A DNA stretch of 49,006 nucleotides from FCB group bacterium (GCA_013152835.1 JAADFQ010000129.1:1-49006); one strand, 5' to 3'. Numbered from the stretch's first letter, positions 20,556 to 40,643 are shown. Notes: generated by a model from the letters alone, not told the origin. Made by a program: numbers and translations.

Positions 20556-21139
20556 CAGGAATATAAATTATGTCTGTCGATAAATTCCCAAACCGGCTGT
20601 GTAACCATATAACGGATAGTTTTATTTTCTTTCCAACGTCTTCGGATTGTCGTAGATGATATTTCGATCCGGGGAATATTGGAAAATCTTACTTTTCTTA
20701 AGATCCAACTTTCGACCGTACTCGGTTTAAATCCCGGTCGTAAGGCAACAATAACCTGACATTCTTCCAGAATTTTTTCCGGTTCTTTCCAGGTTTCAAA
20801 TTCACCAAGCGTATCGGATCCGATTAAAAAATAGGTTTCGTTCCGCGTAAGTCCCCGTTCTGATTTTAATCCGCGAATCGTATCAATAGAATAGGAAACA
20901 CCTCCCCGCTTAATTTCAATATCGGAAATTTCAAAATGCGGATTACTGGCAACGGCGCTTTCCAGCATTTTCAGACGCAGGTTCACCGGTGTAAGGGGCG
21001 ACGATTGTTTGTGCGGGGGTATCAGGGCCGGGATAAAAATAATTTTATCGAAATTTTCCGCTTCACAGATCGTCTGAGCAATTAATAAATGTCCAATATG
21101 AGGCGGGTCAAACGTTCCCCCAAATATGCAAATTTTCAT
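20555..21139 (-). CDS. nadD: Nicotinate-nucleotide adenylyltransferase
   Basis: FGGTFDPPHIGH, SYSIDT, LIGSD, ISST; start at MKICIF gives an ATGA overlap with bamD. Confidence 0.96.
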   Translation of the reverse strand: MKICIFGGTFDPPHIGHLLIAQTICEAENFDKIIFIPALIPPHKQSSPLTPVNLRLKMLESAVASNPHFEISDIEIKRGGVSYSIDTIRGLKSERGLTRNETYFLIGSDTLGEFETWKEPEKILEECQVIVALRPGFKPSTVESWILRKVRFSNIPRIEISSTTIRRRWKENKTIRYMVTQPVWEFIDRHNLYS

Positions 21140-21906
21140 CCTTTTGCCTTTTGAAGTCGACGCTCGCATTTTTTCATGGCCGTGTCCGCTTTGTCAATCA
21201 GTTCAGCGTCCTTCAGGTTCTGCTCATATTGAACATAGATTTCCCGGGCCTTTTCGATATCCCGCAATTCGCAGTAGGCTATTATTAACCCCAGATAGGA
21301 TTTGGACAAATATTCCGTATCATAATATGATTTTAACACTTCATTAAAAGCATCAATAGCTGAATCATAAACGCCGAGTTTGATATACAGGATTCCAGTT
21401 TCATAGGCTTTGCGACCCAGCTTGTTTCGCAATTTTTTCATCATCTCATTGGCTTCATCAGTAAATTTTGAGTCCGGGTAATCGTCAAGAAATTCCTGAA
21501 TTTTTTCAATTGCCTTATTGGTGCTGGTTTGATCCAGGTAGTATTCGGGAGATTCTTCGAAATAACTTTGACAAATCCGCCAACGCGCTTTTTCAACAAA
21601 GGGACTAAACATCATTCGACGGGTTAATCGGTCATACTCTGAGATCGCCAGAATATACTCTTCATTATTAAAATACGACTCCCCCAGATAGAACATGGCA
21701 TCGTCTCCCCATTCCGTGTGGGAGCCGCTTAACACGACATAGTTAAATTCATCCTGGGCCTGGACATATTTCTTTTTATTGAAATATTCCATCCCCTTTT
21801 TGAACCGTGCCTCAAAATCCATTTCATCTTCAGGTTTTGATCCCGCACAACTAAAAACGGTTAAGAAAAACAAGCCGCCGAGTATAATCAGAATAATTCG
21901 TTTCAT
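21136..21906 (-). CDS. bamD: Outer membrane protein assembly lipoprotein BamD
   Basis: Lipobox VFSC, TPRs, ESPEYYLDQTST.KAI..IQEFLDDYPDS, YYDT. Confidence 0.9.
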   Translation of the reverse strand: MKRIILIILGGLFFLTVFSCAGSKPEDEMDFEARFKKGMEYFNKKKYVQAQDEFNYVVLSGSHTEWGDDAMFYLGESYFNNEEYILAISEYDRLTRRMMFSPFVEKARWRICQSYFEESPEYYLDQTSTNKAIEKIQEFLDDYPDSKFTDEANEMMKKLRNKLGRKAYETGILYIKLGVYDSAIDAFNEVLKSYYDTEYLSKSYLGLIIAYCELRDIEKAREIYVQYEQNLKDAELIDKADTAMKKCERRLQKAKG

Positions 21907-30129: not shown

Positions 30130-31959
30130 TTACCGAAGAAAGAACAAACTCAGAATAGGGATATATGTGATGGCAAGCACAACGGCGAGACGGATCAAAA
30201 AGAAAGGGAGCGTCGCTTTATAAATAACGGGCATACTTTTATCAAACCGATATGCGGACAAAAATAAATTCATTCCAACCGGCGGTGTCAGAAAACCGAG
30301 CTCCAGGTTGGCCAGAAATATTACGGCTAGGTGAACGGGATGAATTCCAAAATGGGTGCTCAGAGGAACAATCAGCGGTACAATCACGATAATCGCTGAG
30401 AAAATATCCATCAGACAACCGACCAGGAGAAGTAATAAGTTTAAAAACAACAGGAACAGGTACGGAGAATGAATTGTCGATTTTACAAAACTCAGCAATT
30501 TCATGGGCACCTGGGCATCCACGAGGAAACTGGTTAATCCCATGGCAACACCAAGAATAATCAATACTCCGCCTATCAACGTAGCACACTCCACAATAAT
30601 TCGCGGTAATTGATTCCACGATATATCCCGGTAAACAATCATTTCTATGATCAACACATAAAAGACAGTCACGGCTGCCGTTTCCACCAGGGTCATGAAT
30701 CCACCGAATATACCAATAAGAATAAGGATTGGTAGGGCTAGTTCCCATTTCGCCGACCAGAGAACCGATACGATATGGCGCCAATTATGCGATACGGAAG
30801 AAGATTGTTGATTTTTTTCCTGAAATAAAGCCCAGCCAGCAATGGACACAACTAACAAAACACCGGGTATGGCTCCCCCGATAAAGACATCCTTTACCGA
30901 TACTCCGGCCGTAACACCAAAGATAATTGCCGGTAGACTGGGGGGGAACAGGAGTCCCAACGAACCGGCGACCGTAATCAACCCCAGTGAGAATTGGTCT
31001 GAATAGCCTTCTTTTTTCAGTAAGGGATAGAGTAATCCGCCCAGGGCCAGAATCGTCACACCTGAACCACCCGTCAAGGCGGTAAAAAACCCGCTTAATA
31101 CGACCACAACAATGGGGGTGCCCCCCGGTATCCATCCGAACAACGTACGAAAGACCTCAAAAAGACGTTGCGAAGCCTTGCTCTCGGCCAATAAGTATCC
31201 GGCAAGGGTAAACAAAGGCAACGTCGGTAACGTGGGTGAAACGACAATCCGGTAGGATTCAGCCGGGATGGAACTGGCCGGCGTTCCGTTCCACCAGAAC
31301 AGAACCAGCGCTATGCCACCGAGACCGACAAAAATGGGCGCGCCGAATACCAGAGCCGTCAATATTGAAAGGCAGGCGAATAAAACAATGATCAGCGTTG
31401 GCTGCAGAGCTTCAATAACCAGAAGAAGAATAATGGCCATAGCGATCATCAGAAAGGACGCTCGGAATACGCGCTGATTGCCGCTTTTTAGAAATATCTG
31501 AATCGCAATAAGACCATATCCCAGAGGCATAATAATTTGTGCCACCCATCGAGGCAGATTCGGTGCAATATCGATGGGATATAAGAATTCCCAGCGTATT
31601 AAATCCAGACTTCCCCACAGTAATCCAATGACCACGAGAAAGGAAACAATCTTTGCAAACCAGCGCCAGCCATTGAATGACTCTTCCGGTTGAAACAGCG
31701 GACGCGTTGTTAAGGCCAGCATCTTCCCCTGTCTCATGGCCAGAATAGCACCGATAAATCCGATCCACAAGGTAAGATGCTGAACAATCACCGGCGCTGC
31801 CGGGATACCCGGAATATGAATTATCCGGGAAACGACTTCCAGGGTGGGTATAAAAGCAATCAGGAAAAAGGCGCAGAGGGCCAAAATATCTTCCCCATAC
31901 CGGAGGCCGCTCACAAAAATCTGCGAACGGGAAGTACCAGACTGGGTAGGTTCATTCAT
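30130..31959 (-). CDS. TRAP transporter fused small+large permease (DctQM / TatQM)
   Basis: LWIGFIGAILA (DctQ), LPLFTLAGYLL, GSLGLLFPPSLP, HFGIHPVH, LGFLTPPVGMNLF (DctM). Confidence 0.93.
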   Translation of the reverse strand: MNEPTQSGTSRSQIFVSGLRYGEDILALCAFFLIAFIPTLEVVSRIIHIPGIPAAPVIVQHLTLWIGFIGAILAMRQGKMLALTTRPLFQPEESFNGWRWFAKIVSFLVVIGLLWGSLDLIRWEFLYPIDIAPNLPRWVAQIIMPLGYGLIAIQIFLKSGNQRVFRASFLMIAMAIILLLVIEALQPTLIIVLFACLSILTALVFGAPIFVGLGGIALVLFWWNGTPASSIPAESYRIVVSPTLPTLPLFTLAGYLLAESKASQRLFEVFRTLFGWIPGGTPIVVVVLSGFFTALTGGSGVTILALGGLLYPLLKKEGYSDQFSLGLITVAGSLGLLFPPSLPAIIFGVTAGVSVKDVFIGGAIPGVLLVVSIAGWALFQEKNQQSSSVSHNWRHIVSVLWSAKWELALPILILIGIFGGFMTLVETAAVTVFYVLIIEMIVYRDISWNQLPRIIVECATLIGGVLIILGVAMGLTSFLVDAQVPMKLLSFVKSTIHSPYLFLLFLNLLLLLVGCLMDIFSAIIVIVPLIVPLSTHFGIHPVHLAVIFLANLELGFLTPPVGMNLFLSAYRFDKSMPVIYKATLPFFLIRLAVVLAITYIPILSLFFLR

Positions 31960-32938
31960 TCGATAAACTGAGCGTATCCAGTTTCATCAGAGTATCATAC
32001 ATTTTTTCCGAGATAAAGGAACCACGCAGTTCAGGATACCAACTGCGCACTAATTTTTTCCAGGTCGTATATTCTTCTTCAGTCGGATAAACCACGGTTA
32101 GGCCGTGTTCAACCATTGCATCAATGGCCTTCTGATCAGCAAATCGACCGGTGGCTTGGTGCTTCGCCCCTATTTCATGAGCGATATCCAATAGCGGTTG
32201 CTGATACTTTTCCGGAATTTGATTCCATTTCCGCTTATCCACCACCATGGCGGCAGTAACCAACCCCCATTTCATATATAACATGTGATTGGCCACTCCG
32301 AACCATTGGGACGACAGAGCAAATAAAGGGGTCGTTCCTACGGCATCGATTAGTCCTGTCTGGAGCCCGGACAAAGCATCTGTTGATGCCAGCGAAACGG
32401 ACTGAAAGCCGGCAGACTTCCATAACTCACTGGATTTAAAATCACCGGCCCAGGTGAATATTTTCAAGTCCCGGAGGTCATCCGGTGTCCGAATCTCCTT
32501 ATCCGTAAACCAGTACGCCCAACCAATATCAGCCCAATACAATAACTTAAATCCATTTTTATCGATTTGTTTTTCCAGGTCGGGAGAAATAATGGTACGA
32601 ATCCGGTCCACATCTTCATAATCCTGAAAATACATTGGCATGATGAAAGCATAGACATCGGGAGCCAACTCCGACAGGCCCTCGGTCGTGATACCGGCGG
32701 CATGAATTTGACCAATGCGCATCTTTCGGATCATATCCCGTTCATCACCCACAACCCCATTAGGGTAAATTCTCAGCACGACTTGTCCGTCGGTGGCTTC
32801 GGCCCATTGCTGCCCCATGGTGACAAGCTGACCGTACAATTCGGTACCTTCCGGAGCCAGTGTAGCGAGCTTGATGACAATTTTCTTGGGATAAGCCCAG
32901 GCACTAATTACCAGTAACCAAATAATCCAGCGTTTCAT
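31952..32938 (-). CDS. dctP: TRAP substrate-binding protein DctP (TatP type)
   Basis: IKLATLAPEGT, IYPNGVVGDE.DMIRKMRIGQ, TPDDLRDLKI, LQTGLIDA. Confidence 0.92.
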   Translation of the reverse strand: MKRWIIWLLVISAWAYPKKIVIKLATLAPEGTELYGQLVTMGQQWAEATDGQVVLRIYPNGVVGDERDMIRKMRIGQIHAAGITTEGLSELAPDVYAFIMPMYFQDYEDVDRIRTIISPDLEKQIDKNGFKLLYWADIGWAYWFTDKEIRTPDDLRDLKIFTWAGDFKSSELWKSAGFQSVSLASTDALSGLQTGLIDAVGTTPLFALSSQWFGVANHMLYMKWGLVTAAMVVDKRKWNQIPEKYQQPLLDIAHEIGAKHQATGRFADQKAIDAMVEHGLTVVYPTEEEYTTWKKLVRSWYPELRGSFISEKMYDTLMKLDTLSLSNE

Positions 32939-32945
32939 AGTATTC

Positions 32946-33860
32946 TCAGTAAAATAGTTCTTCTTCCCTGTTTAATAACCATTGAGCCCGGCGCTGCGCG
33001 ATAACGTTGGATAAGCGGTTGGATGGATTTGTATCTACGTCAAAGGAAAGCGCTTTTTCGAGTAAAGCGTGGAACTCTTCCCGATCCTGGTTTCTTACGG
33101 ACACTTTTTCCGCCAACGTCACCAGGATCGATACATCCTGTCCACTGGATGCTGTTAAGGCCTTTTGAAAATAATCACGGGCCCATGCCTCACCGTTCTT
33201 GCCCGCATCAGGTCGGGACAGTGACAACGAAATCATGGCTGAATAAAGACTTCCGTGATTCCATCCGGCATCGAGGTCCAATGCGCTTTCCATGAGTTTC
33301 ACGACTTCCGGAATTCGAATCACCATTTTCGGATCGCCCTGACTGGAAGCTATTTGTCCACCAAGAGCAGCGCCCGTCCAGTACAAAAGGGGAACATCCT
33401 TTTCAACGAATTGAATATCAGGATTTGAATTACCGCTAAGCCATTCAGGAAAACCGGGGTGTCTAATTTCCAGGGCGTGAAGGCCATAACCGGTTGCTCG
33501 TTCAAATAAAATACCGGCCCGTTGGTATTGCTCCAAGCCTCGTTGGTAATTATCCAATATTGTCCGGTCGGCTTCTTCCATAACGAAACCATACGTGTAC
33601 ATCGTGTAGGCACTGCAACCCAGTTCCAGTAAAGCCGTATTATTCGGATGCGTTTCGATCAGTGCATCAATAATTTTTAGATTGGTTGGGAAAGAAGCCG
33701 CCACCAGTTCCGGATCTTTTTCCGACATGGTTACATAGGTTAAATTGTCCAGGAAGGGATCTATCTTTCGTTTTAGTATCGCTGTCGGACTGCAACTATA
33801 GAGAAATAAAAAAGCAAAGATCAGAGAGGCTTGGCAGGATTTTTTAGGGGCGAATTCCAT
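32946..33860 (-). CDS. tatT: TRAP transporter T-component lipoprotein TatT
   Basis: Lipobox LYSC, DPELV..SFP, YTYGFV, LYWTGAA, NVIAQRRAQWLL...EELF; upstream of dctP. Confidence 0.88.
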   Translation of the reverse strand: MEFAPKKSCQASLIFAFLFLYSCSPTAILKRKIDPFLDNLTYVTMSEKDPELVAASFPTNLKIIDALIETHPNNTALLELGCSAYTMYTYGFVMEEADRTILDNYQRGLEQYQRAGILFERATGYGLHALEIRHPGFPEWLSGNSNPDIQFVEKDVPLLYWTGAALGGQIASSQGDPKMVIRIPEVVKLMESALDLDAGWNHGSLYSAMISLSLSRPDAGKNGEAWARDYFQKALTASSGQDVSILVTLAEKVSVRNQDREEFHALLEKALSFDVDTNPSNRLSNVIAQRRAQWLLNREEELFY

Positions 33861-35214: not shown

Positions 35215-36492
35215 CTACCAGTTAGCCTCTTTATTCAATTTTTCCGTTACCCAGCGGTAACAATCGCCGGTTGGCGTGAGATAACCCTGGCGTTTTACTT
35301 TCGGATCCAGCATGAACCAATTCGCTTTGGTGAATAGCACTTCATTATCGCTGAGCCATTGCCGGGATGATGAATACCGTTTGTAATTGTTACTTTCCGC
35401 TTCCTGAAAATATTTACTGGCCAGGGAAGCGACAATCCGATCGTCATCCGTTAAGCTGGTTCCGCGGCAATTCTGAAAGGCCTTATAAAACACCTTACCC
35501 TTTTGCCCCAGGGATTCACCGTTAGAGCCGGAAACCTGTATGGCTTTTTCCGCCCAGCGAAGCGCTTTGCCAAAATCTTTCAACTCAATATTCAAATCGG
35601 AGATTTTAATCGCCACCCGGAAATCACGGGGATCCAGTTTAAACAGTTCTTCATAGGCTTTTGAGGCATTCTCCAGCGCGTCGATGCTGCTGTATGTATC
35701 CGCAAGTTTTCGGTAGGCCAGTCGGCTGGTATTATCCACGGAAATTACCTGTTTGATCACATCAATGGCTTCCTCGGGGCGTTCCGCATTCAGTAAACGT
35801 TCCGCATAATCGATTCCATAGGATACATTTTCAGGATTTTTTATGAACCGTTCCCGAATGAATTCCAACGGATCTTTCCCGCTTTTTTCATAGGCCACGG
35901 CCAGTTCGCCCTGGGCGATTTCATTATCCGGTTCCAGAGCGACCAATTTACGCAGAACATAAATCTGATCATCATAACGCTCATCTTCACTGTAGAGATC
36001 GGCTAAGTCCGTCAGAATAGAAGCGTCATCCGGCGCCATATCCATAAGTCGTTCGTACTCTACAATCTCTTTATCTTTTTCGCCCTGTTTTTTATAGGAA
36101 TAGGCCAGTCGTTTTCGTAAATCAACGTTATCAGGTAATTTCTGAAGACCTTTCAGAAGGACAAACTCGGCACTATCGTATTTAGCCAGATATTCATAAG
36201 CAATTGCCCAATAGAGGTAAATTTCTTCTGGTGGTGAAAATTGAGGATGGGATTCATCACATCCCAGATCAATAAGATCACCATAAATACGCACGGTTGC
36301 CGGCCAGTCCTGGTTTCGGTAATATTCAGCGGCGGAACTCATTAGCCGCGGACAGCGGACATTTCTAAGGGAATCCAGAGTGCTGCTATCCGTTTCCGTT
36401 GCGGCTCCCTGATCCTCAGGTGGAACGCACATAATGACCAACGACACAACCGCAACAAGGGTTATCACCCGACGATTGAAAAGATGATTCAT
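35215..36492 (-). CDS. Exported TPR-repeat protein (possible lipoprotein)
   Basis: Hydrophobic N-terminus ending VIMC; many TPR units; start MNHLF gives a TGATG overlap with the upstream gene. Confidence 0.8.
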
Positions 36493-37769
36493 CAAATCTC
36501 TCTCCTTTTTACGAACCAAATGTCACTTAAACTCAGGTTAATGGAAAATTTCTGAATCGTATCTACCGGGCTTAAGCCACCCGATCGTAATCCGTAACTA
36601 TAATCGAAATCGATATAATTATCGGTAACACCAAATTTAATACCAAGACGGGTTGTGACTCCAACTTCATTTATCCCGACAGAATTACCTGTAAAATTAA
36701 ATTGACTCCCATAGATGCCCGTAGAATAGCGTAAACGACTAGGTAATGTTTTTGTATACTCCCCGGTGAATTTATGCCAGGTGAGCGACCAGTTCAGATT
36801 GTTATTTAACGGCTGATGATTTAATGTTGCCTCGTCTGCGTTTTTTCCGTTTTCCTTCCAATAACTCACCTGTGTTACCAGTTGGGATGTTTTACCGGTA
36901 TGTACCCCGGTAGCCAGTTCGATAAAAAACGGAGCATGAACGTCATTAATCGTTGACGAAACCGGTTCCAGGTTCGCAACGGAAGACGGAAAATCATATA
37001 AATCATGGAAATCATCATTAATCCCGGACTCATTGACATCCTGGAATAACTGGTACTGATTTTTCGTTATTGAAACTGGAGAAAAGGCCAAACCCAAGGA
37101 AGTTTTCACCCATAGGGAATAACTATGAAACTGCATATCATTAAAGGATAAATAGAATTGTACAAGACTTCCTGAATAGTCTGACCGTGTCCATTGAACA
37201 AAATTATCATTTCCCAGATCCAAAGATGATTTCACTCTCCGCGATCCAAATAACCCGGAAAATTTGATTCCTACATCAATCCGTTCATTAAAGCGGGTAC
37301 CAAATCCGATGAATGCCTGTGACATTCCTCCGGCCGATTGCATGGATCCCGATAAGGTCAGTGTATCCTCCCAGCTCTTGAACGTTGATATTTCGCTGGT
37401 AAGATGATAACTCTGGTCCAGATAAGGTTCGAGACCGAGACCAAATGCATATTTTTGTTTAATTGGAAGAATGAACATGATTTGATTCAGATTACTGCCC
37501 GACCGAAAAAGTCCGTTATCCCCTTTAAGAGAAACACCGCCATAGTTTGCTTTTATAATCGTGAATCGAAGATATCTCCACGAGGAGGGATCAGATGTAG
37601 ATGCTTTGGAGCTGAGATCAAAACTAAATCCGGGTGTGTTTCCCAACCACCGCGGCTGAGCCGATGAGGCGAAGTCCCCTAATCCAGTTCCACCGACATT
37701 CACCTGTCCCGCCAGGATAGTTACTGACAGGATTAATCCAGATAGGGTTACTCTATTTCGATTGCACAT
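36492..37769 (-). CDS. FadL-like outer membrane beta-barrel (Bacteroidota BamG-like)
   Basis: Signal peptide, GLGD.., DPSS (NPAS-like), FGLGLEPY, GGMSQAFIGFG, amphipathic strands, C-terminal LSLSDIWFVKR. Confidence 0.7.
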   Translation of the reverse strand: MCNRNRVTLSGLILSVTILAGQVNVGGTGLGDFASSAQPRWLGNTPGFSFDLSSKASTSDPSSWRYLRFTIIKANYGGVSLKGDNGLFRSGSNLNQIMFILPIKQKYAFGLGLEPYLDQSYHLTSEISTFKSWEDTLTLSGSMQSAGGMSQAFIGFGTRFNERIDVGIKFSGLFGSRRVKSSLDLGNDNFVQWTRSDYSGSLVQFYLSFNDMQFHSYSLWVKTSLGLAFSPVSITKNQYQLFQDVNESGINDDFHDLYDFPSSVANLEPVSSTINDVHAPFFIELATGVHTGKTSQLVTQVSYWKENGKNADEATLNHQPLNNNLNWSLTWHKFTGEYTKTLPSRLRYSTGIYGSQFNFTGNSVGINEVGVTTRLGIKFGVTDNYIDFDYSYGLRSGGLSPVDTIQKFSINLSLSDIWFVKRREI

Positions 37770-38961
37770 AAAGGATTCTTAAATGAGTATTACCTGTTGT
37801 GGAAAAATGAATTACATCAAACGGATTGGTGTTTGTTTTGGCATAAAGTTTAATACCCAGATTAGGGTAAGAATTCTGCCGGATTGTCTGTAGGTACGTC
37901 TTCAAATTCACTTTCAAGTTTCCGCCGGAAATAATAGCATCAGATGTAAAAAATCCCCGGACGGAAATATCGTCATTCTCTTTTTCCATATATTCTGTAG
38001 ATGTCAGTGTGTCGGCCACCGGAACAAATTGGATTGCAAACTCTGAATTAAACGTAGTGTCGGCAACGGGTAACGATAATTCTGCCTGGTCGATGAGTAT
38101 CATCCCCTGAAGAGAATCCAAAACAGCGAGATCGAGATTTACAATTGCCTTGAAACCCCTCCCGGAAGAGATACTCAGGTATTGTTGATCTTTTAATGAT
38201 ACAGGCGGCGGAGTAGCAATTGTCACATCCTTAGTGACAGCAAAAGACCGTGCCAAAGTATCCAGAACATTTCCCTGAGAATCCACCGTTCGGAAATTAA
38301 CCGTGATTGAAGGGGGATTTGAGGATTCACGGCTCATCAATCGCAGGGAATCGTTAAGGTCGCCAACCAGGTTCAAACCAATGGTTCGGCTGCTGAGCGA
38401 ATCGGTAAACGATGTGGCAAATTGAGAAAAATCCCAGCGGAGAAATGTATCGCCGGTATCGGGAGGGATAAGGAGAAATTGCCCCGATCCAATGGAAATT
38501 CCCCGGGAATAGTCCGTTTCGGAGAAATTCATATAGTTTGATTTCGATTCATTGAATATTGAATCGGAAACATCGGAAAAGTTTACCGCCTCTACATTCG
38601 GAGGAAGAAAAGTCGAGTCCGTTTGAACGGGAAATTGCATAAAGATGCTATCGATCCGAATTGAGTCCGATTCCATCAATTTTTTCCAGGTAAGCGCCGA
38701 ATAACCGCTCGCTGCATTGGCAAACTGAACCAGTACGAAGCGACAAGAAAAAGAATCGATTGTCCCTAAATACAATTTATTTTGTGCGCCGAATTCCGGT
38801 GGAATATGATATGTAAATCCGGAGATATCTGATATCGAAAGGGTGTCCGCAAGCATTAGATGATCCGAGGTTAACCCGCTTTGAACCGGGGTTTCTTCAC
38901 AGGACCAGAATATAACTCCCAGAATCACCCACAGGGGTGTGCGTTGAAGCAGTTTTTGCAT
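37753..38961 (-). CDS. Lipoprotein, DUF4270-like (Bacteroidota BamH-like)
   Basis: Lipobox FWSC followed by acidic EE; LYLG, RIDSIFM, IDQAELSLPV, C-terminal LRILY; lies directly after a half glycogen synthase as DUF4270 genes do. Confidence 0.6.
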   Translation of the reverse strand: MQKLLQRTPLWVILGVIFWSCEETPVQSGLTSDHLMLADTLSISDISGFTYHIPPEFGAQNKLYLGTIDSFSCRFVLVQFANAASGYSALTWKKLMESDSIRIDSIFMQFPVQTDSTFLPPNVEAVNFSDVSDSIFNESKSNYMNFSETDYSRGISIGSGQFLLIPPDTGDTFLRWDFSQFATSFTDSLSSRTIGLNLVGDLNDSLRLMSRESSNPPSITVNFRTVDSQGNVLDTLARSFAVTKDVTIATPPPVSLKDQQYLSISSGRGFKAIVNLDLAVLDSLQGMILIDQAELSLPVADTTFNSEFAIQFVPVADTLTSTEYMEKENDDISVRGFFTSDAIISGGNLKVNLKTYLQTIRQNSYPNLGIKLYAKTNTNPFDVIHFSTTGNTHLRILYVQSK

Positions 38962-38979
38962 GGTGTGGACTACGCTGAC

Positions 38980-39807
38980 TTATGAGAAAAGTTTCTCAAT
39001 CGTAGCATCGATACTATCGGCGATAGCAGAGTAATCTGGATTTTCATCATCATCCCAGGGAATAACGTCCACTTTTCCGGCATTTGCCTTAAAACCCTTA
39101 CGTTTCAATAACTGGGTTGAATTCTGATTGGATGGGGTATCGAAAATAATAATCCGATCAGCGGAATAGGCGGCTACCTCATAGCAATTCAGTGTGGCTC
39201 CCTTTAAATCCTCGGGAACGGTTACACCTGCCGATTCATAAACGGAACGAGCAAAAGTGTCGTATTCATCCAAATTGTGAATAACCAGCACTGTATGAAT
39301 ATCTTTGTAAAATGAATCTTTGGCATATATTTCCCGGTACGCCAGTGGAACCAGAGACGTCTGCCATCCATTACAGAACACAATATCCGGGCTCCAAAAC
39401 AGATGCGGCAAAGATGCCAATGCTGAAATACTGTAAAAGGCAGATCGCATATCATTGTCACTTAATACGCGGCCATTTTTTGCTTTGTACAATAAATTAT
39501 TCAAAGGTGAAAACCATTCTTTATGTTCCAGGAAATAGACCTGAACCCGGGTTTTCGGAATAAAGGCGCTTTTTGCCGAAACCATCTGATCCTGACCCTC
39601 AAAAGTAAACGGTATTTCACGGAGACGGATTACCTCGCGGAGAATATATTTTCTTTCACTCACGAACCCATACTTGGGAATCATGGTTCGGATATCATGC
39701 CCCTTCGATTGAAGAGCCAAAGGAACTTTGGCGGAAAATTCCCCGAGGGGTGAGGTGGATGCAAAAGGAGTAATTTCAGTCGTTAAATAAAAGATCTTGC
39801 GAGCCAT
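38980..39807 (-). CDS. Glycogen/starch synthase N-terminal (GT5) domain-only protein
   Basis: EITPF, GHDIRTMIPKYG..SERKYILREVIRL, PDIVFCNGWQTSLVP, IHNL; only 275 aa; KTGGL replaced by STSPL. Confidence 0.85.
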   Translation of the reverse strand: MARKIFYLTTEITPFASTSPLGEFSAKVPLALQSKGHDIRTMIPKYGFVSERKYILREVIRLREIPFTFEGQDQMVSAKSAFIPKTRVQVYFLEHKEWFSPLNNLLYKAKNGRVLSDNDMRSAFYSISALASLPHLFWSPDIVFCNGWQTSLVPLAYREIYAKDSFYKDIHTVLVIHNLDEYDTFARSVYESAGVTVPEDLKGATLNCYEVAAYSADRIIIFDTPSNQNSTQLLKRKGFKANAGKVDVIPWDDDENPDYSAIADSIDATIEKLFS

Positions 39808-39815
39808 AAATGATG

Positions 39816-40643
39816 CTATTCCATATTTAATTGTTTCAAAGATTCTTTGGCTTTATCGACATATTCACTTCCGGGAAAATAATCCAGGAGGCGCTTATAT
39901 TCATCGCGGGCTTTTTCCAATTCGCCCATACTTTGATAAGCCAATCCAAGTTTTAGCTGAGCGTCATCATCTTTGTCCGTCCCGGGAAAAGTGAATACCT
40001 TCCCGAACTCGATGACTGACCGTTTGTAATTTTTCTGTGAATAAAAACATTCCGCCAACCAATACTGACTGTTATCGGCCAATTCATTCCGGGGGTCGGC
40101 TACAACCAATTCAGAGAAGCCCCGTATGGCATCTTCATAACGACCATTTTGATAGTTACTCAGGCTTTCAATATAACGATTCTTATATTGCTGTGGAGTC
40201 AATTTGGCAGTCTGACTTACCTCGGGAGGTTCATTTTTTAAATTATACATTTCCGTGAAACTGTTCGTCAATGTAACCACTTTATTTTCGATCATGACTA
40301 ACTGTGCAAGGATCTCGAAATTGGTGCTATCCGTATAAGCAGCTTTATCTTCCAGAATATGGATTTTATTCTGCAGGGTGTTGATTTTATTGATAATTGA
40401 AATATCTACAGAATCGGATTGTTTTTTGGCTTCGGTAGCAGCACGGAGTGTATTTTTTAAATCCGGAAGCAAGATCCTGATCTGGTTATCCAGGCTATCA
40501 ATTCGTACTTTTTCCCGATTGATGCGTGCTTCCAACCGTTTGAACTTTCGTTCCACATCACTCTGCTGTCCAAAAACAATGCCGGAAAGGAGGATGATGA
40601 AAAAGAGTATGGGTTTGCCGGAGATGAGCTGTCGCATAGACAT
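39816..40643 (-). CDS. cpoB: Tol-Pal associated coiled-coil/TPR protein CpoB (YbgF)
   Basis: Signal peptide, coiled coil, LADNSQYWLAECFY, DAQLKLG, YFPGS. Confidence 0.85.
   Translation of the reverse strand: MSMRQLISGKPILFFIILLSGIVFGQQSDVERKFKRLEARINREKVRIDSLDNQIRILLPDLKNTLRAATEAKKQSDSVDISIINKINTLQNKIHILEDKAAYTDSTNFEILAQLVMIENKVVTLTNSFTEMYNLKNEPPEVSQTAKLTPQQYKNRYIESLSNYQNGRYEDAIRGFSELVVADPRNELADNSQYWLAECFYSQKNYKRSVIEFGKVFTFPGTDKDDDAQLKLGLAYQSMGELEKARDEYKRLLDYFPGSEYVDKAKESLKQLNME

Follow-up and report, generated by a model that had tools for sequence, protein, structure and literature searches.

Two overlapping genes of a Fidelibacterota (Marinimicrobia) genome, encoding a 402-aa lipoprotein and a 425-aa β-barrel, are best explained as the Fidelibacterota versions of BamH and BamG, i.e., as core subunits of the BAM complex together with BamA and BamD, a reading to which we give a probability of roughly 0.8. 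It is built on homology observed in sequence and in fold, on signal and motif features, and on synteny. The occurrence of BamG and BamH outside Bacteroidota has already been published, and a Bacteroidota-type BAM complex in other FCB phyla is also in print. The suggestion of the preliminary description that this lineage has such a complex fits the BamG and BamH homologues and bamD, and has these precedents in print.

Gene layout of the locus

The window, i.e., the whole 49,006-nt stretch of DNA that was analyzed, comes from a Fidelibacterota MAG that is 87.7% complete. Four consecutive, tightly packed ORFs occupy positions 35215-39807 of the minus strand, and are listed here with the gene directly upstream and with bamD:

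39816..40643, minus strand: CpoB/YbgF-like TPR protein, directly upstream of GT5N; TIGR02795 at 73.8 bits, below the cut-off of 90.1
38980..39807, minus strand: GT5N, 275 aa; PF08323, N-terminal half of glycogen/starch synthase, catalytic motifs lost, no signal peptide
37753..38961, minus strand: bamH-like predicted surface lipoprotein, 402 aa; E-E directly after lipobox Cys21, two β-sandwich domains, 11 D-[ST]-hydrophobic motifs
36492..37769, minus strand: bamG-like 14-stranded FadL-type barrel, 425 aa; NF053685, Gln-start N-terminal tail, conserved C-terminal D-I-W-F-V-K-R-R tail
35215..36492 (to 36519 with the TTG start), minus strand: TPR lipoprotein, 425 aa (ATG at 36492) or 434 aa (TTG at 36519); TPR families, M-C-V-P-P lipobox
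21136..21906, minus strand: bamD; TIGR03302 at 131 bits against a cut-off of 81.4, 13.3 kb from the cluster

A gap of 18 nt separates GT5N from the bamH-like gene, the bamH-like and bamG-like ORFs overlap by 17 nt, and the stop codon of the barrel gene overlaps the start of the TPR gene as TGATG, provided that the TPR gene begins with the ATG of position 36492, before which stands AGGAG. The tight packing extends past the four genes: 8 nt lie between them and the end of the CpoB/YbgF-like gene on the upstream side, and 8 nt between them and the start of glyA on the downstream side, so that they are part of a longer envelope cluster on the same strand, in which rodA, PBP2 and mreBCD stand before the CpoB/YbgF-like gene. 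The four tightly coupled genes, the barrel C-terminus reading ...LSLSDIWFVKRREI, the SC-EE start of the lipoprotein and the position of bamD 13 kb away were all confirmed as the preliminary description had given them. In addition to bamD, the genome encodes BamA fragments and SprA. SusD was not found in this 87.7% complete genome and SusC gave no match up to the cut-off, and thus one proposed class of BAM clients may be missing.

The 425-aa barrel is a homologue of BamG

Structures of the Bacteroidota BAM complex are available from F. johnsoniae (9n2d), B. thetaiotaomicron (9hiv/9his) and P. gingivalis (9hjm). The sole NCBIfam family matched by the barrel is NF053685 (BamG), over the full length of the model (positions 38-397 of 397; E 1.2e-22), with a score of 80.6 bits that falls far short of the 250 bits set as curated cut-off; metagenome barrels of Bacteroidota type reach 394 and 450 bits on this model. 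No match to Toluene_X or any other Pfam family was seen at E≤0.1. When a profile of the barrel family (35 sequences) was searched against the PDB, exactly three chains were matched at E≤1, all of them from BAM entries: 9n2d_B (1e-19), which carries the name 'Bam G', 9hiv_F and 9hjm_F. These alignments run end to end, including the N-terminal Y-G-x-G and the C-terminal W-F-V-K tails. The same three chains headed the Foldseek results (E 1.5e-20 to 3.4e-18, TM 0.69-0.73); FadL came next at E 4e-10 and a TM of about 0.5, with FadL, TodX and PorV together spanning 4e-10 to 1.7e-7. Two motifs can be aligned with F. johnsoniae BamG, Q..Y-G-x-G close to the mature N-terminus and D-x-W-F-V-K at the C-terminus; tail residues 1-45 are modelled at pLDDT <50. 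In the BAM literature, it is an extended tail at the N-terminus of BamG and a tail at its C-terminus that contact BamA and BamD; BamG is further characterized there by co-purification with BamA and by being essential.

The other FadL-like barrel of the genome is a Toluene_X member, and neither that barrel nor its neighbor matches the bamG-like or bamH-like family profiles; the pair described here is the only one of its kind in this genome. As the preliminary description proposed, the barrel is a homologue of BamG: its profile retrieves three BAM chains only, and Foldseek ranks BamG above FadL.

The modelled fold of the 402-aa lipoprotein resembles BamH

The lipoprotein begins ...VIFWSC-EETPV, i.e., C21-E-E-T-P-V, and was modelled by AF2 with a pLDDT of 88.9. 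A comparison with known structures by Foldseek had been proposed for both proteins, and BAM chains came out on top for both. For the lipoprotein, the top three were 9n2d_C, 9hjm_G and 9his_G (E 1.5e-13 to 5.6e-8), with the fourth match, at 4.6e-4, about four orders of magnitude behind them. Which subunit these chains represent is named by no tool output, and we infer that they are BamH from the entry titles, the chain sizes and the descriptions in the papers. VIA gave Z scores of 18.3 (9hjm_G), 18.0 (9n2d_C) and 16.1 (9his_G), with 341-350 of the 402 residues aligned (~85%) at 8-11% identity. The next VIA match was a single-domain chondroitin-sulfate CBM (8wab_B, Z 13.4), a fold that has been ascribed to BamH (Liu et al.); a two-domain match over the whole length was made by BAM chains only. 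These results support the lipoprotein as a homologue with the elongated two-domain fold of BamH.

The family name DUF4270, which had been proposed along with BamH, did not stand at the level of sequence. DUF4270 (PF14092) was not matched by the lipoprotein, which has no Pfam match at all at E≤0.1, nor by any of the 52 members of its family at E≤1, nor, in a search at E≤1 that did match a B. thetaiotaomicron positive control, by anything in the genome. The lipoprotein-family profile found none of the BAM chains by sequence at E≤10. Hints of DNRLRE and CBM96 were weak, and DUF4270-labelled clusters were among the nearest to the lipoprotein in a language-model comparison, which we treat as a lead only.

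Surface lipoproteins are recognized by a minimum of two acidic residues among the six that follow the lipid-bearing Cys (Silale et al.). The lipoprotein has such acidic residues, from which surface exposure is predicted, and among the 29 orthologues of the same order acidic residues fall in the first four positions after the Cys in 28, the exception having its first at the fifth. The D-[ST]-[AILVMT] motif occurs 10.35 times per protein in the family compared to 2.44 in shuffles (4.25x), and at eight alignment columns it is present in at least half of 52 sequences. Bacteroidota BamH is O-glycosylated at the D-[ST]-hydrophobic motif (Liu et al.), and the lipoprotein is probably O-glycosylated as well. 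It has ~100 residues fewer than BamH of B. thetaiotaomicron and F. johnsoniae; BamH of P. gingivalis, which is a proven subunit, likewise has a short chain of 439 residues. In the BAM complex of Bacteroidota, BamH engages BamG with its N-terminal tail and its proximal domain.

The flanking GT5 half-enzyme and TPR lipoprotein

The 275-aa protein has PF08323 as its sole Pfam match (139 bits, 2.4e-40, residues 4-220). GlgA models match it over about the first 190 of roughly 480 positions, far below their cut-offs, and the C-terminal Glycos_transf_1 (second Rossmann) domain is absent. In alignment with starch synthases, K-T-G-G-L is changed to S/E-T-S-S/P-L (STSPL in the window protein) and N-D-W-H to N-G-W-Q, i.e., Gln stands where the 'DWH' motif has His. 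The K-x-G-G-L residues and the D-W-H histidine are those that we take to be catalytically important in GlgA. The short form was present in 148/151 sampled genomes of the phylum, often beside a separate full-length GlgA (~490 aa), and its mean column identity is 60%. By these features, GT5N is a predicted cytoplasmic pseudo-enzyme.

The TPR protein matches TPR families and has an M-C-V-P-P lipobox and four conserved cysteines, with C22, C47 and C78 invariant, and is predicted to be a periplasm-side lipoprotein. TIGR03302 (BamD) is absent among its 22 NCBIfam matches at E≤0.1, and this genome encodes its BamD elsewhere, at 21136..21906. Of 100 Marinimicrobia loci, 85 carry a matching TPR ORF. 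Aligned by hhalign with the TPR proteins encoded after bamG in contigs of Bacteroidota type, the TPR family matched end to end (probability 98.6%, E 1e-15, 359 columns) with three cysteines of the two families in register. In a plain HMM search, the Bacteroidota-type TPR profile missed the window protein at E≤0.1, and the Marinimicrobia profile also matched other TPR proteins of the genome, down to 2.6e-24.

Conservation of the gene order

The order GT5 half, bamH-like gene, bamG-like gene and TPR lipoprotein is shared with many genomes: it was found in 29/29 other genomes of the same order, in 20/20 loci sampled across another 15 families of the phylum, and in 65 of 80 named Marinimicrobia contigs, the remaining 15 of which each have <3.7 kb of sequence beyond the GT5-half gene. 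Every Fidelibacterota locus that was examined and had sufficient flank showed it. Upstream of GT5N, most of the loci in the order have a CpoB/YbgF-like gene; in one genus with seven small genomes (0.8-1.1 Mb) rodA takes its place, and the cluster, including GT5N, is retained in genomes of this size.

In Bacteroidota, the primary bamG and bamH genes are at separate loci (Bt4367/Bt4306 and Fjoh_1412/Fjoh_0823). The arrangement given for these loci in the preliminary description finds support: by locus tags, B. thetaiotaomicron BT_4307, a 'potential glycogen synthase', adjoins bamH BT_4306, and 16/34 Flavobacteriaceae-like contigs have a TPR gene after a bona fide bamG. In 18/34 Bacteroidota-type contigs, lptC follows bamG and there is no TPR gene. 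The neighbors of bamH and bamG in Bacteroidota thus support the proposal that two loci which are apart there are joined here. The gene numbered next to F. johnsoniae bamH, fjoh_0824, provided one of the two native promoters (the other being that of ompA) in the systems used for depleting essential BAM components (Liu et al.).

A model for the gene pair and its alternatives

From these homologies, we infer that the lipoprotein is exposed at the surface and glycosylated, and that the pair binds BamA and functions in the BAM complex. In such a model, BamG would be a FadL-type barrel packed against the back of the BamA barrel, and BamH a two-domain protein, anchored by lipid, exposed at the surface and probably O-glycosylated, that is docked on an extracellular pillar of BamG, where it would roof the site at which new barrels fold. 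Together they may help to build outer-membrane proteins with large external parts, e.g., the type IX secretion channel SprA, which is present in the genome. Their genes would be translationally coupled within a long envelope operon, and the order of dead GlgA half, bamH, bamG and four-cysteine TPR gene appears to be ancestral; in Bacteroidota it is split into two loci.

Could the pair instead be unrelated to protein assembly, the barrel serving for uptake or as a shuttle, like FadL or PorV, and the surface lipoprotein binding glycans? The FadL fold of the barrel, with FadL, TodX and PorV among its structural matches, the carbohydrate-binding-module fold of one lipoprotein domain (8wab_B) and the DNRLRE and CBM96 hints point that way, but the BamG chains outscore FadL by 8 to 10 orders of magnitude and have the higher TM, the Toluene_X match of the other FadL-like barrel is missing here, the BamG-specific tails are conserved at both termini, only BAM chains match both domains of the full-length lipoprotein, and the genomic context is one of cell-envelope housekeeping; we consider this reading very improbable. 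It is also improbable, if somewhat less so, that the pair corresponds to BamG2-BamH2, an operon-encoded alternative pair of paralogues, rather than to core subunits. Bt1785-Bt1786 are adjacent in a putative operon, like the pair here, and BamH2, like the 402-aa protein, is short by ~100 residues relative to BamH. Against this, the pair is the only one in its genome and is found throughout the phylum, including genomes of ~1 Mb, both of its flanks match the primary loci (the glycogen-synthase-like gene at BT_4306 and the TPR gene after barrels scoring 394-450 bits), and the proven P. gingivalis subunit is short as well.

A broader proposal, which adds to the assignment as BamG and BamH and does not replace it, is that all four genes are one functional unit, with the TPR protein a periplasmic BAM accessory, e.g., docking on the conserved C-terminal tail of BamG, and the dead GlgA half a cytoplasmic factor tied to the production or modification of BamH. 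The conserved linkage suggests a role for both proteins related to BamH and BamG: GT5N is highly conserved, nearly universal in the sampled genomes and immediately upstream of the bamH-like gene at each of the 29 + 20 inspected loci, including those of the smallest genomes; BT_4307 neighbors bamH, and the fjoh_0824 promoter is among those of Liu et al.; the TPR start overlaps the barrel stop codon, its gene follows bamG throughout the phylum and in the 16 Flavobacteriaceae-like contigs, and hhalign pairs the two TPR families over their whole length. This is, however, evidence of linkage, and gene order in a long housekeeping operon could last through inertia. GT5N, having no signal peptide, could not contact outer-membrane proteins; the accounts of subunits co-purified in three Bacteroidota species mention neither protein type; the contigs with lptC after bamG dispense with the TPR gene; and the link between the TPR families fails at the plain HMM level. 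We therefore hold the four-gene unit to be tentative and rather doubtful, and think it unlikely that the cluster is the ancestral BAM operon of the FCB superphylum with both unstudied members as real accessory factors. If it were, the TPR protein would serve BamG or BamA in the periplasm as an assembly or docking factor, and the pseudo-glycosyltransferase a cytoplasmic factor coupling the supply or O-glycosylation of the motif-rich BamH to envelope growth.

Comparison with known systems

Compared to GlgA (GT5), GT5N retains a recognizable N-terminal Rossmann-type domain (PF08323), whereas the C-terminal nucleotide-sugar domain is absent and other residues stand in place of the lysine and glycines of K-x-G-G-L and the histidine of D-W-H; many genomes of the phylum have a full-length GlgA as a separate protein. 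With the FadL/TodX channels the barrel shares 14 strands and an N-terminal segment; it differs in a fold score below that to BamG, in having no Toluene_X match, and in the conserved BamG-type motif of its N-terminal tail. The adjacency of bamH2 and bamG2 in B. thetaiotaomicron (Bt1785-Bt1786) has already been noted in print, and the pair here resembles it in the neighboring barrel and lipoprotein genes and in the short BamH-type protein; the B. thetaiotaomicron pair, however, is an extra copy that was undetected in proteomics, whereas the pair here is single, phylum-wide and flanked by the genes of the primary loci.

The closest comparison is with BamG-BamH of Bacteroidota. Shared are the FadL-type barrel with BamG motifs in both tails, the two-domain fold of the lipoprotein with its acidic export signal after the Cys and many D-S/T-hydrophobic motifs, and a genome that encodes BamA, BamD and SprA. 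The differences are the strong divergence (80.6 bits on the BamG model, no DUF4270, 8-11% identity to the BamH chains), a BamH-like protein shortened by ~100 residues relative to F. johnsoniae and B. thetaiotaomicron, and the position of the two genes, which are at separate loci in those species but adjacent and apparently translationally coupled here.

Organization of the cluster

The four genes and bamD were placed from the listing of open reading frames (ORFs) in the window, as follows.

Genes of the cluster, in gene order, and bamD
39807..38980, minus strand: GT5N, the N-terminal half of a glycogen synthase, 275 aa; ORF
38961..37753, minus strand: BamH-like lipoprotein, 402 aa; ORF, start ...VIFWSC-EETPV
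37769..36492, minus strand: BamG-like barrel, 425 aa; ORF, end ...LSLSDIWFVKRREI
36519..35215, minus strand: TPR protein; ORF
21136..21906, minus strand: bamD; score over its cut-off

The listing confirmed the preliminary description of four tightly coupled genes, of the end of the barrel and the SC-EE start of the lipoprotein, and of a bamD gene nearby. Within the cluster, GT5N and the lipoprotein gene lie 18 nt apart, the lipoprotein and barrel genes overlap by 17 nt, and the barrel and TPR genes share a TGATG stop/start, provided that translation of the TPR protein begins at the ATG at 36492, which has AGGAG eight bases upstream. The tight packing goes past both borders of the four-gene stretch: only 8 nt separate it from a CpoB/YbgF-like gene upstream, and another 8 nt from glyA downstream. 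The identity of glyA was read from its translation, as were those of the probable rodA and PBP2 genes that precede the CpoB/YbgF-like gene; mreBCD would lie further upstream, judging by ORF positions and sizes. A promoter and terminator scan gave 31 promoter-like sites versus 30.3 in shuffles, none of them informative for the borders of the operon. A search for expression data listed no RNA sample, and a single DNA run contained a small share of the query words. The region 31952-33860 of the window, downstream of glyA, includes a TRAP-transporter T-component gene of the TAtT family (PF16811, 226 bits), beside which a 328-aa and a 609-aa ORF read as putative genes for the TRAP solute-binding and membrane proteins.

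The barrel is homologous to BamG

The barrel matched no Pfam family at E≤0.1. The sole NCBIfam family to match it was BamG (NF053685), over the full length and with an E-value of 1.2e-22, at a score of 80.6 bits that is below the cut-off of 250. A profile of the barrel family (alignment A2, 35 members), run against PDB sequences, matched exactly three at E≤1, all of them chains of Bacteroidota BAM complexes: 9n2d_B (1e-19), 9hiv_F (1.3e-18) and 9hjm_F (4.7e-11). Chain 9n2d_B carries the name 'Bam G', and the alignment to it runs end to end, from the Y-G-x-G segment near the N-terminus to the W-F-V-K tail at the C-terminus. The same three chains were the best Foldseek matches of the AF2 model of the barrel (pLDDT 82.4), with E-values of 1.5e-20 to 3.4e-18 and TM scores of 0.69-0.73, and FadL stood behind them (4e-10, TM about 0.5). 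The family model, the profile search and the structural search thus bear out the early reading of this FadL-like barrel as BamG.

The other FadL-like barrel of the window genome is a Toluene_X member, and neither it nor its neighbour matched the profiles of the barrel and lipoprotein families. The lipoprotein encoded before this second barrel (458 aa; contig C40, stretch at positions 55-2379) has 312 aa and is unrelated to the BamH-like family; its complexity is very low, with Trp/Tyr/Gly-rich stretches followed by Ser/Arg/Lys-rich ones. The predicted mature N-termini of most BamG-like barrel orthologues in the order start with Gln after the signal peptide (G-Q-S, A-Q-S). An N-terminal glutamine is a habit of the secreted proteins of Bacteroidota, which these Gln-start barrels of Fidelibacterota resemble in that residue.

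The lipoprotein has a BamH fold

The lipoprotein belongs to a compact family, with 67 representatives at E≤1e-3, nearly all of about 400 aa. It had been described as DUF4270-like, and at the level of sequence this did not hold: none of 52 aligned members of the family matched DUF4270 at E≤1, the lipoprotein itself had no Pfam match, the family profile matched no BAM chain among PDB sequences, and DUF4270 had no match in the entire window genome in a search in which the B. thetaiotaomicron control was positive. As a lead only, a language-model search placed DUF4270-labelled clusters among the nearest to the lipoprotein.

At the level of fold, the likeness stood. The AF2 model of the lipoprotein is a confident prediction (pLDDT 88.9, pTM 0.82), and its top three Foldseek matches were 9n2d_C (1.5e-13), 9hjm_G (3.4e-8) and 9his_G (5.6e-8), the next being at 4.6e-4. 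VIA-align superposed 341-350 of the 402 residues on these three BAM chains, with Z scores of 18.3 (9hjm_G), 18.0 (9n2d_C) and 16.1 (9his_G); the next match was 8wab_B, a single-domain chondroitin-sulfate CBM (Z 13.4). BamH is described as having two domains, with a chondroitin-sulfate CBM fold at the BamG-proximal end (Liu et al.). We infer that the three chains are BamH because the entry titles, the chain lengths and this description of the fold fit, the lengths of 439 versus 520 being taken as fitting the 88-residue difference in Silale et al. The reading of the barrel and lipoprotein as a BamG/BamH pair is well supported. Since both proteins fail the curated sequence-model tests, they are homologues that have diverged, not members that pass the models.

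Surface-export signal and O-glycosylation motif

Two glutamates directly follow Cys21 of the lipoprotein. In 28 of 29 orthologues of the order, acidic residues likewise occur among the four residues that follow the cysteine, and in the remaining one (genome L025) the first is at the fifth position. In Bacteroidota, the mark of a surface lipoprotein is two or more acidic residues within six of the cysteine, and BamH-K meet it (Silale et al.). A crude regular-expression lipobox screen of the window genome found this signal, two or more acidic residues among the six after the cysteine, in 22 of 106 candidate lipoproteins. These residues may represent a Bacteroidota-like surface-export signal in Fidelibacterota.

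The lipoprotein family is also rich in D-[ST]-[AILVMT] motifs, with a mean of 10.35 per member versus 2.44 in composition-preserving shuffles (about 4-fold), or 2.53 per 100 aa versus 0.37 in 300 sampled long ORFs of the genome; the window lipoprotein (37753-38961) has 11. In an alignment of 52 sequences, the motif recurs at eight columns in half of the members or more, and at one of these columns 48 sequences have it. The barrel, GT5N and TPR families showed no enrichment (ratios of 1.49, 0.81 and 1.26). According to Silale et al., every glycan site seen in the BAM maps has a D-T/S-hydrophobic motif, and seven of the 12 glycan sites of the P. gingivalis complex are on BamH. We infer from sequence that the BamH-like lipoprotein is probably glycosylated and surface-exposed. 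The strong, conserved enrichment suggests that Bacteroidota-style protein O-glycosylation, together with acidic lipoprotein surface export, extends to Fidelibacterota.

The gene order is conserved across the phylum

A search with the 402-aa protein matched 31 of 151 sampled genomes, namely the window genome, 29 others of its order and one weak match elsewhere. All 29 of these other genomes of the order have a CpoB-like gene or rodA followed by GT5N, lipoprotein and barrel, and in 14 of them the start of the TPR gene was detected by BLASTP at the edge of the flank. In seven small genomes (0.8-1.1 Mb; L015, L020-L024 and L026) that belong to one genus of the order, the GT5N, bamH-like and bamG-like genes are kept and rodA lies directly upstream in place of the CpoB-like gene.

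The short GT5N gene itself was found by alignment search in 148 of the 151 genomes, including 95/95 of those of high quality, and many genomes of the phylum encode in addition a distinct, full-length GlgA (about 490 aa). Outside the order, 20 of the 118 matching genomes, from 15 families, were sampled. In all 20 loci the gene after GT5N encodes a lipoprotein of 372-975 aa, recognised by the lipoprotein profile in 13; behind it stand a BamG-like barrel gene and then the gene for another lipoprotein, about 425 aa long, whose lipobox reads C-[VATQIM]-P, and rpiB and glyA are the usual genes thereafter. In four genomes from other orders of the same class (L114-L117), the gene between GT5N and barrel encodes 761-975 aa, about twice the usual size, and these enlarged lipoproteins keep the lipobox cysteine followed by acidic residues. 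A wider genome scan with the GT5N alignment gave 343 relatives, the best 80 of which were all from Marinimicrobia; all four genes stood in order on 65 of these 80 named contigs, and each of the other 15 had less than 3.7 kb of sequence past the GT5N gene. The four-gene order is apparently ancestral.

GT5N lacks a signal peptide and consists of the N-terminal GT5 domain only. Relative to starch and glycogen synthases, K-T-G-G-L is changed to S/E-T-S-S/P-L and N-D-W-H to N-G-W-Q. Residues of both motifs matter for GT5 catalysis, and by sequence GT5N would be a pseudo-enzyme. Even so, its conservation is high (48 columns are invariant in an alignment of 21 sequences), and genomes as small as 0.8-1.1 Mb have kept the gene. 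A search for a separate C-terminal GT domain gave six Glycos_transf_1 matches in the genome, none an evident partner.

Other BAM components and clients

The window genome was assembled as a MAG with 257 contigs that total 2.61 Mb, at a completeness of 87.7%. BamA is read as present and split by the assembly, since frames of 337-657 aa match positions 3-278 of the BamA-family model on contig C32, 281-728 on C103 and 146-732 on C202. A frame of 2088 aa encodes SprA, the channel of type IX secretion. SusD was not found in this incomplete genome, and matches to the SusC model covered only its N-terminal part, none at the cut-off. According to Liu et al., BamGH correlate with SusCD/SprA.

BamG loci and the TPR protein in Bacteroidota-type contigs

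A scan of metagenome contigs with the motif at the C-terminus of F. johnsoniae BamG gave 120 stretches, 58 with a BamG-like ORF. Two of these barrels, tested on NF053685, scored 394 and 450 bits, and among the relatives of the TPR protein of one such contig are some, 74-77% identical, that are named Flavobacteriaceae. The gene order is coaX (type III pantothenate kinase), bamG, then a TPR gene or lptC. In 34 loci the sequence extends 1.5 kb or more downstream; of these, 15 have the TPR gene directly after bamG and one has it 362 nt further on, its product, of 442-466 aa, carrying an ordinary signal peptide. In the remaining 18, the same strand of the examined flank showed no TPR gene of that type, and in all of them a gene for a lipoprotein of about 184 aa directly follows bamG, identified as lptC in the one scanned. 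The coaX-bamG-LptC-family order of these 18 contigs links bamG to an LPS-transport gene. Neither the GT5N nor the lipoprotein family had a match in the examined flanks of the 58 loci.

Plain HMMs do not resolve whether the TPR proteins of the two phyla correspond. They fail the control, as the Marinimicrobia TPR profile matches unrelated TPR proteins of the window genome at E-values reaching 2.6e-24, and the Flavobacteriaceae-type profile did not find the window TPR protein at E≤0.1. Because this control fails, the recovery of 31/31 by jackhmmer was discounted as evidence of orthology, with TPR drift a possible cause. In a profile-profile alignment the two families matched end to end over 359 columns (55-428 of one, 28-461 of the other; probability 98.6%, E 1e-15), with three conserved cysteines in register and a similar C-x-W-I motif at the C-terminus. 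As controls, a generic TPR protein of the window genome aligned locally only (104 columns, 86%) and the single window TPR sequence aligned out of register (9%). The TPR proteins are probably orthologous across both phyla. Complex prediction for the mature barrel and mature TPR lipoprotein from family alignments gave 0.00 versus a mark of 0.32, which informs neither way.

Comparison with the Bacteroidota BAM complex

The description of the Bacteroidota-type BAM complex dates only from 2025; in Bacteroidota the additional subunits are essential. Of the seven other FCB phyla, six have conserved BamG and BamH according to Liu et al., whose text contains neither 'Marinimicrobia' nor 'Fidelibacterota', and a literature search found no paper naming both 'BamG' and 'Marinimicrobia'. 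The BamG-BamH core is now seen, in a compact gene order, in an abundant, uncultivated marine phylum. This provides cross-phylum synteny evidence for two conserved neighbours, the apparently inactive glycogen-synthase half and the four-cysteine TPR protein, and their conserved linkage makes both candidates for a role in outer-membrane biogenesis, which the preliminary description had raised. In the text available from the two BAM papers, 'glycogen' is absent from both, 'TPR' from Silale et al., and 'TPR' and 'tetratricopeptide' from Liu et al., where the bam gene organisation is given as a figure.

BamG and BamH are Fjoh_1412 and Fjoh_0823 in F. johnsoniae (Liu et al.) and Bt4367 and Bt4306 in B. 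thetaiotaomicron (Silale et al.), and by these locus tags the primary bamG and bamH genes lie at separate loci in those species. Bt1785 and Bt1786, their paralogues, lie in a putative operon according to the paper, and Bt4306 is a DUF4270 protein according to its preprint. By numbering, BT_4306 adjoins BT_4307, which another paper calls a 'potential glycogen synthase'; the adjacency of a GT5N gene and bamH in Bacteroidota is thus indicated by locus tags in papers. The depletion systems for essential BAM components of Liu et al. were built on the native ompA and fjoh_0824 promoters. Both Bacteroidota neighbourhoods match the cluster, that of a GT5-like gene and bamH by locus tags and that of bamG and a TPR gene in metagenome contigs, and, as proposed from the sequence at the outset, the two are contiguous here.
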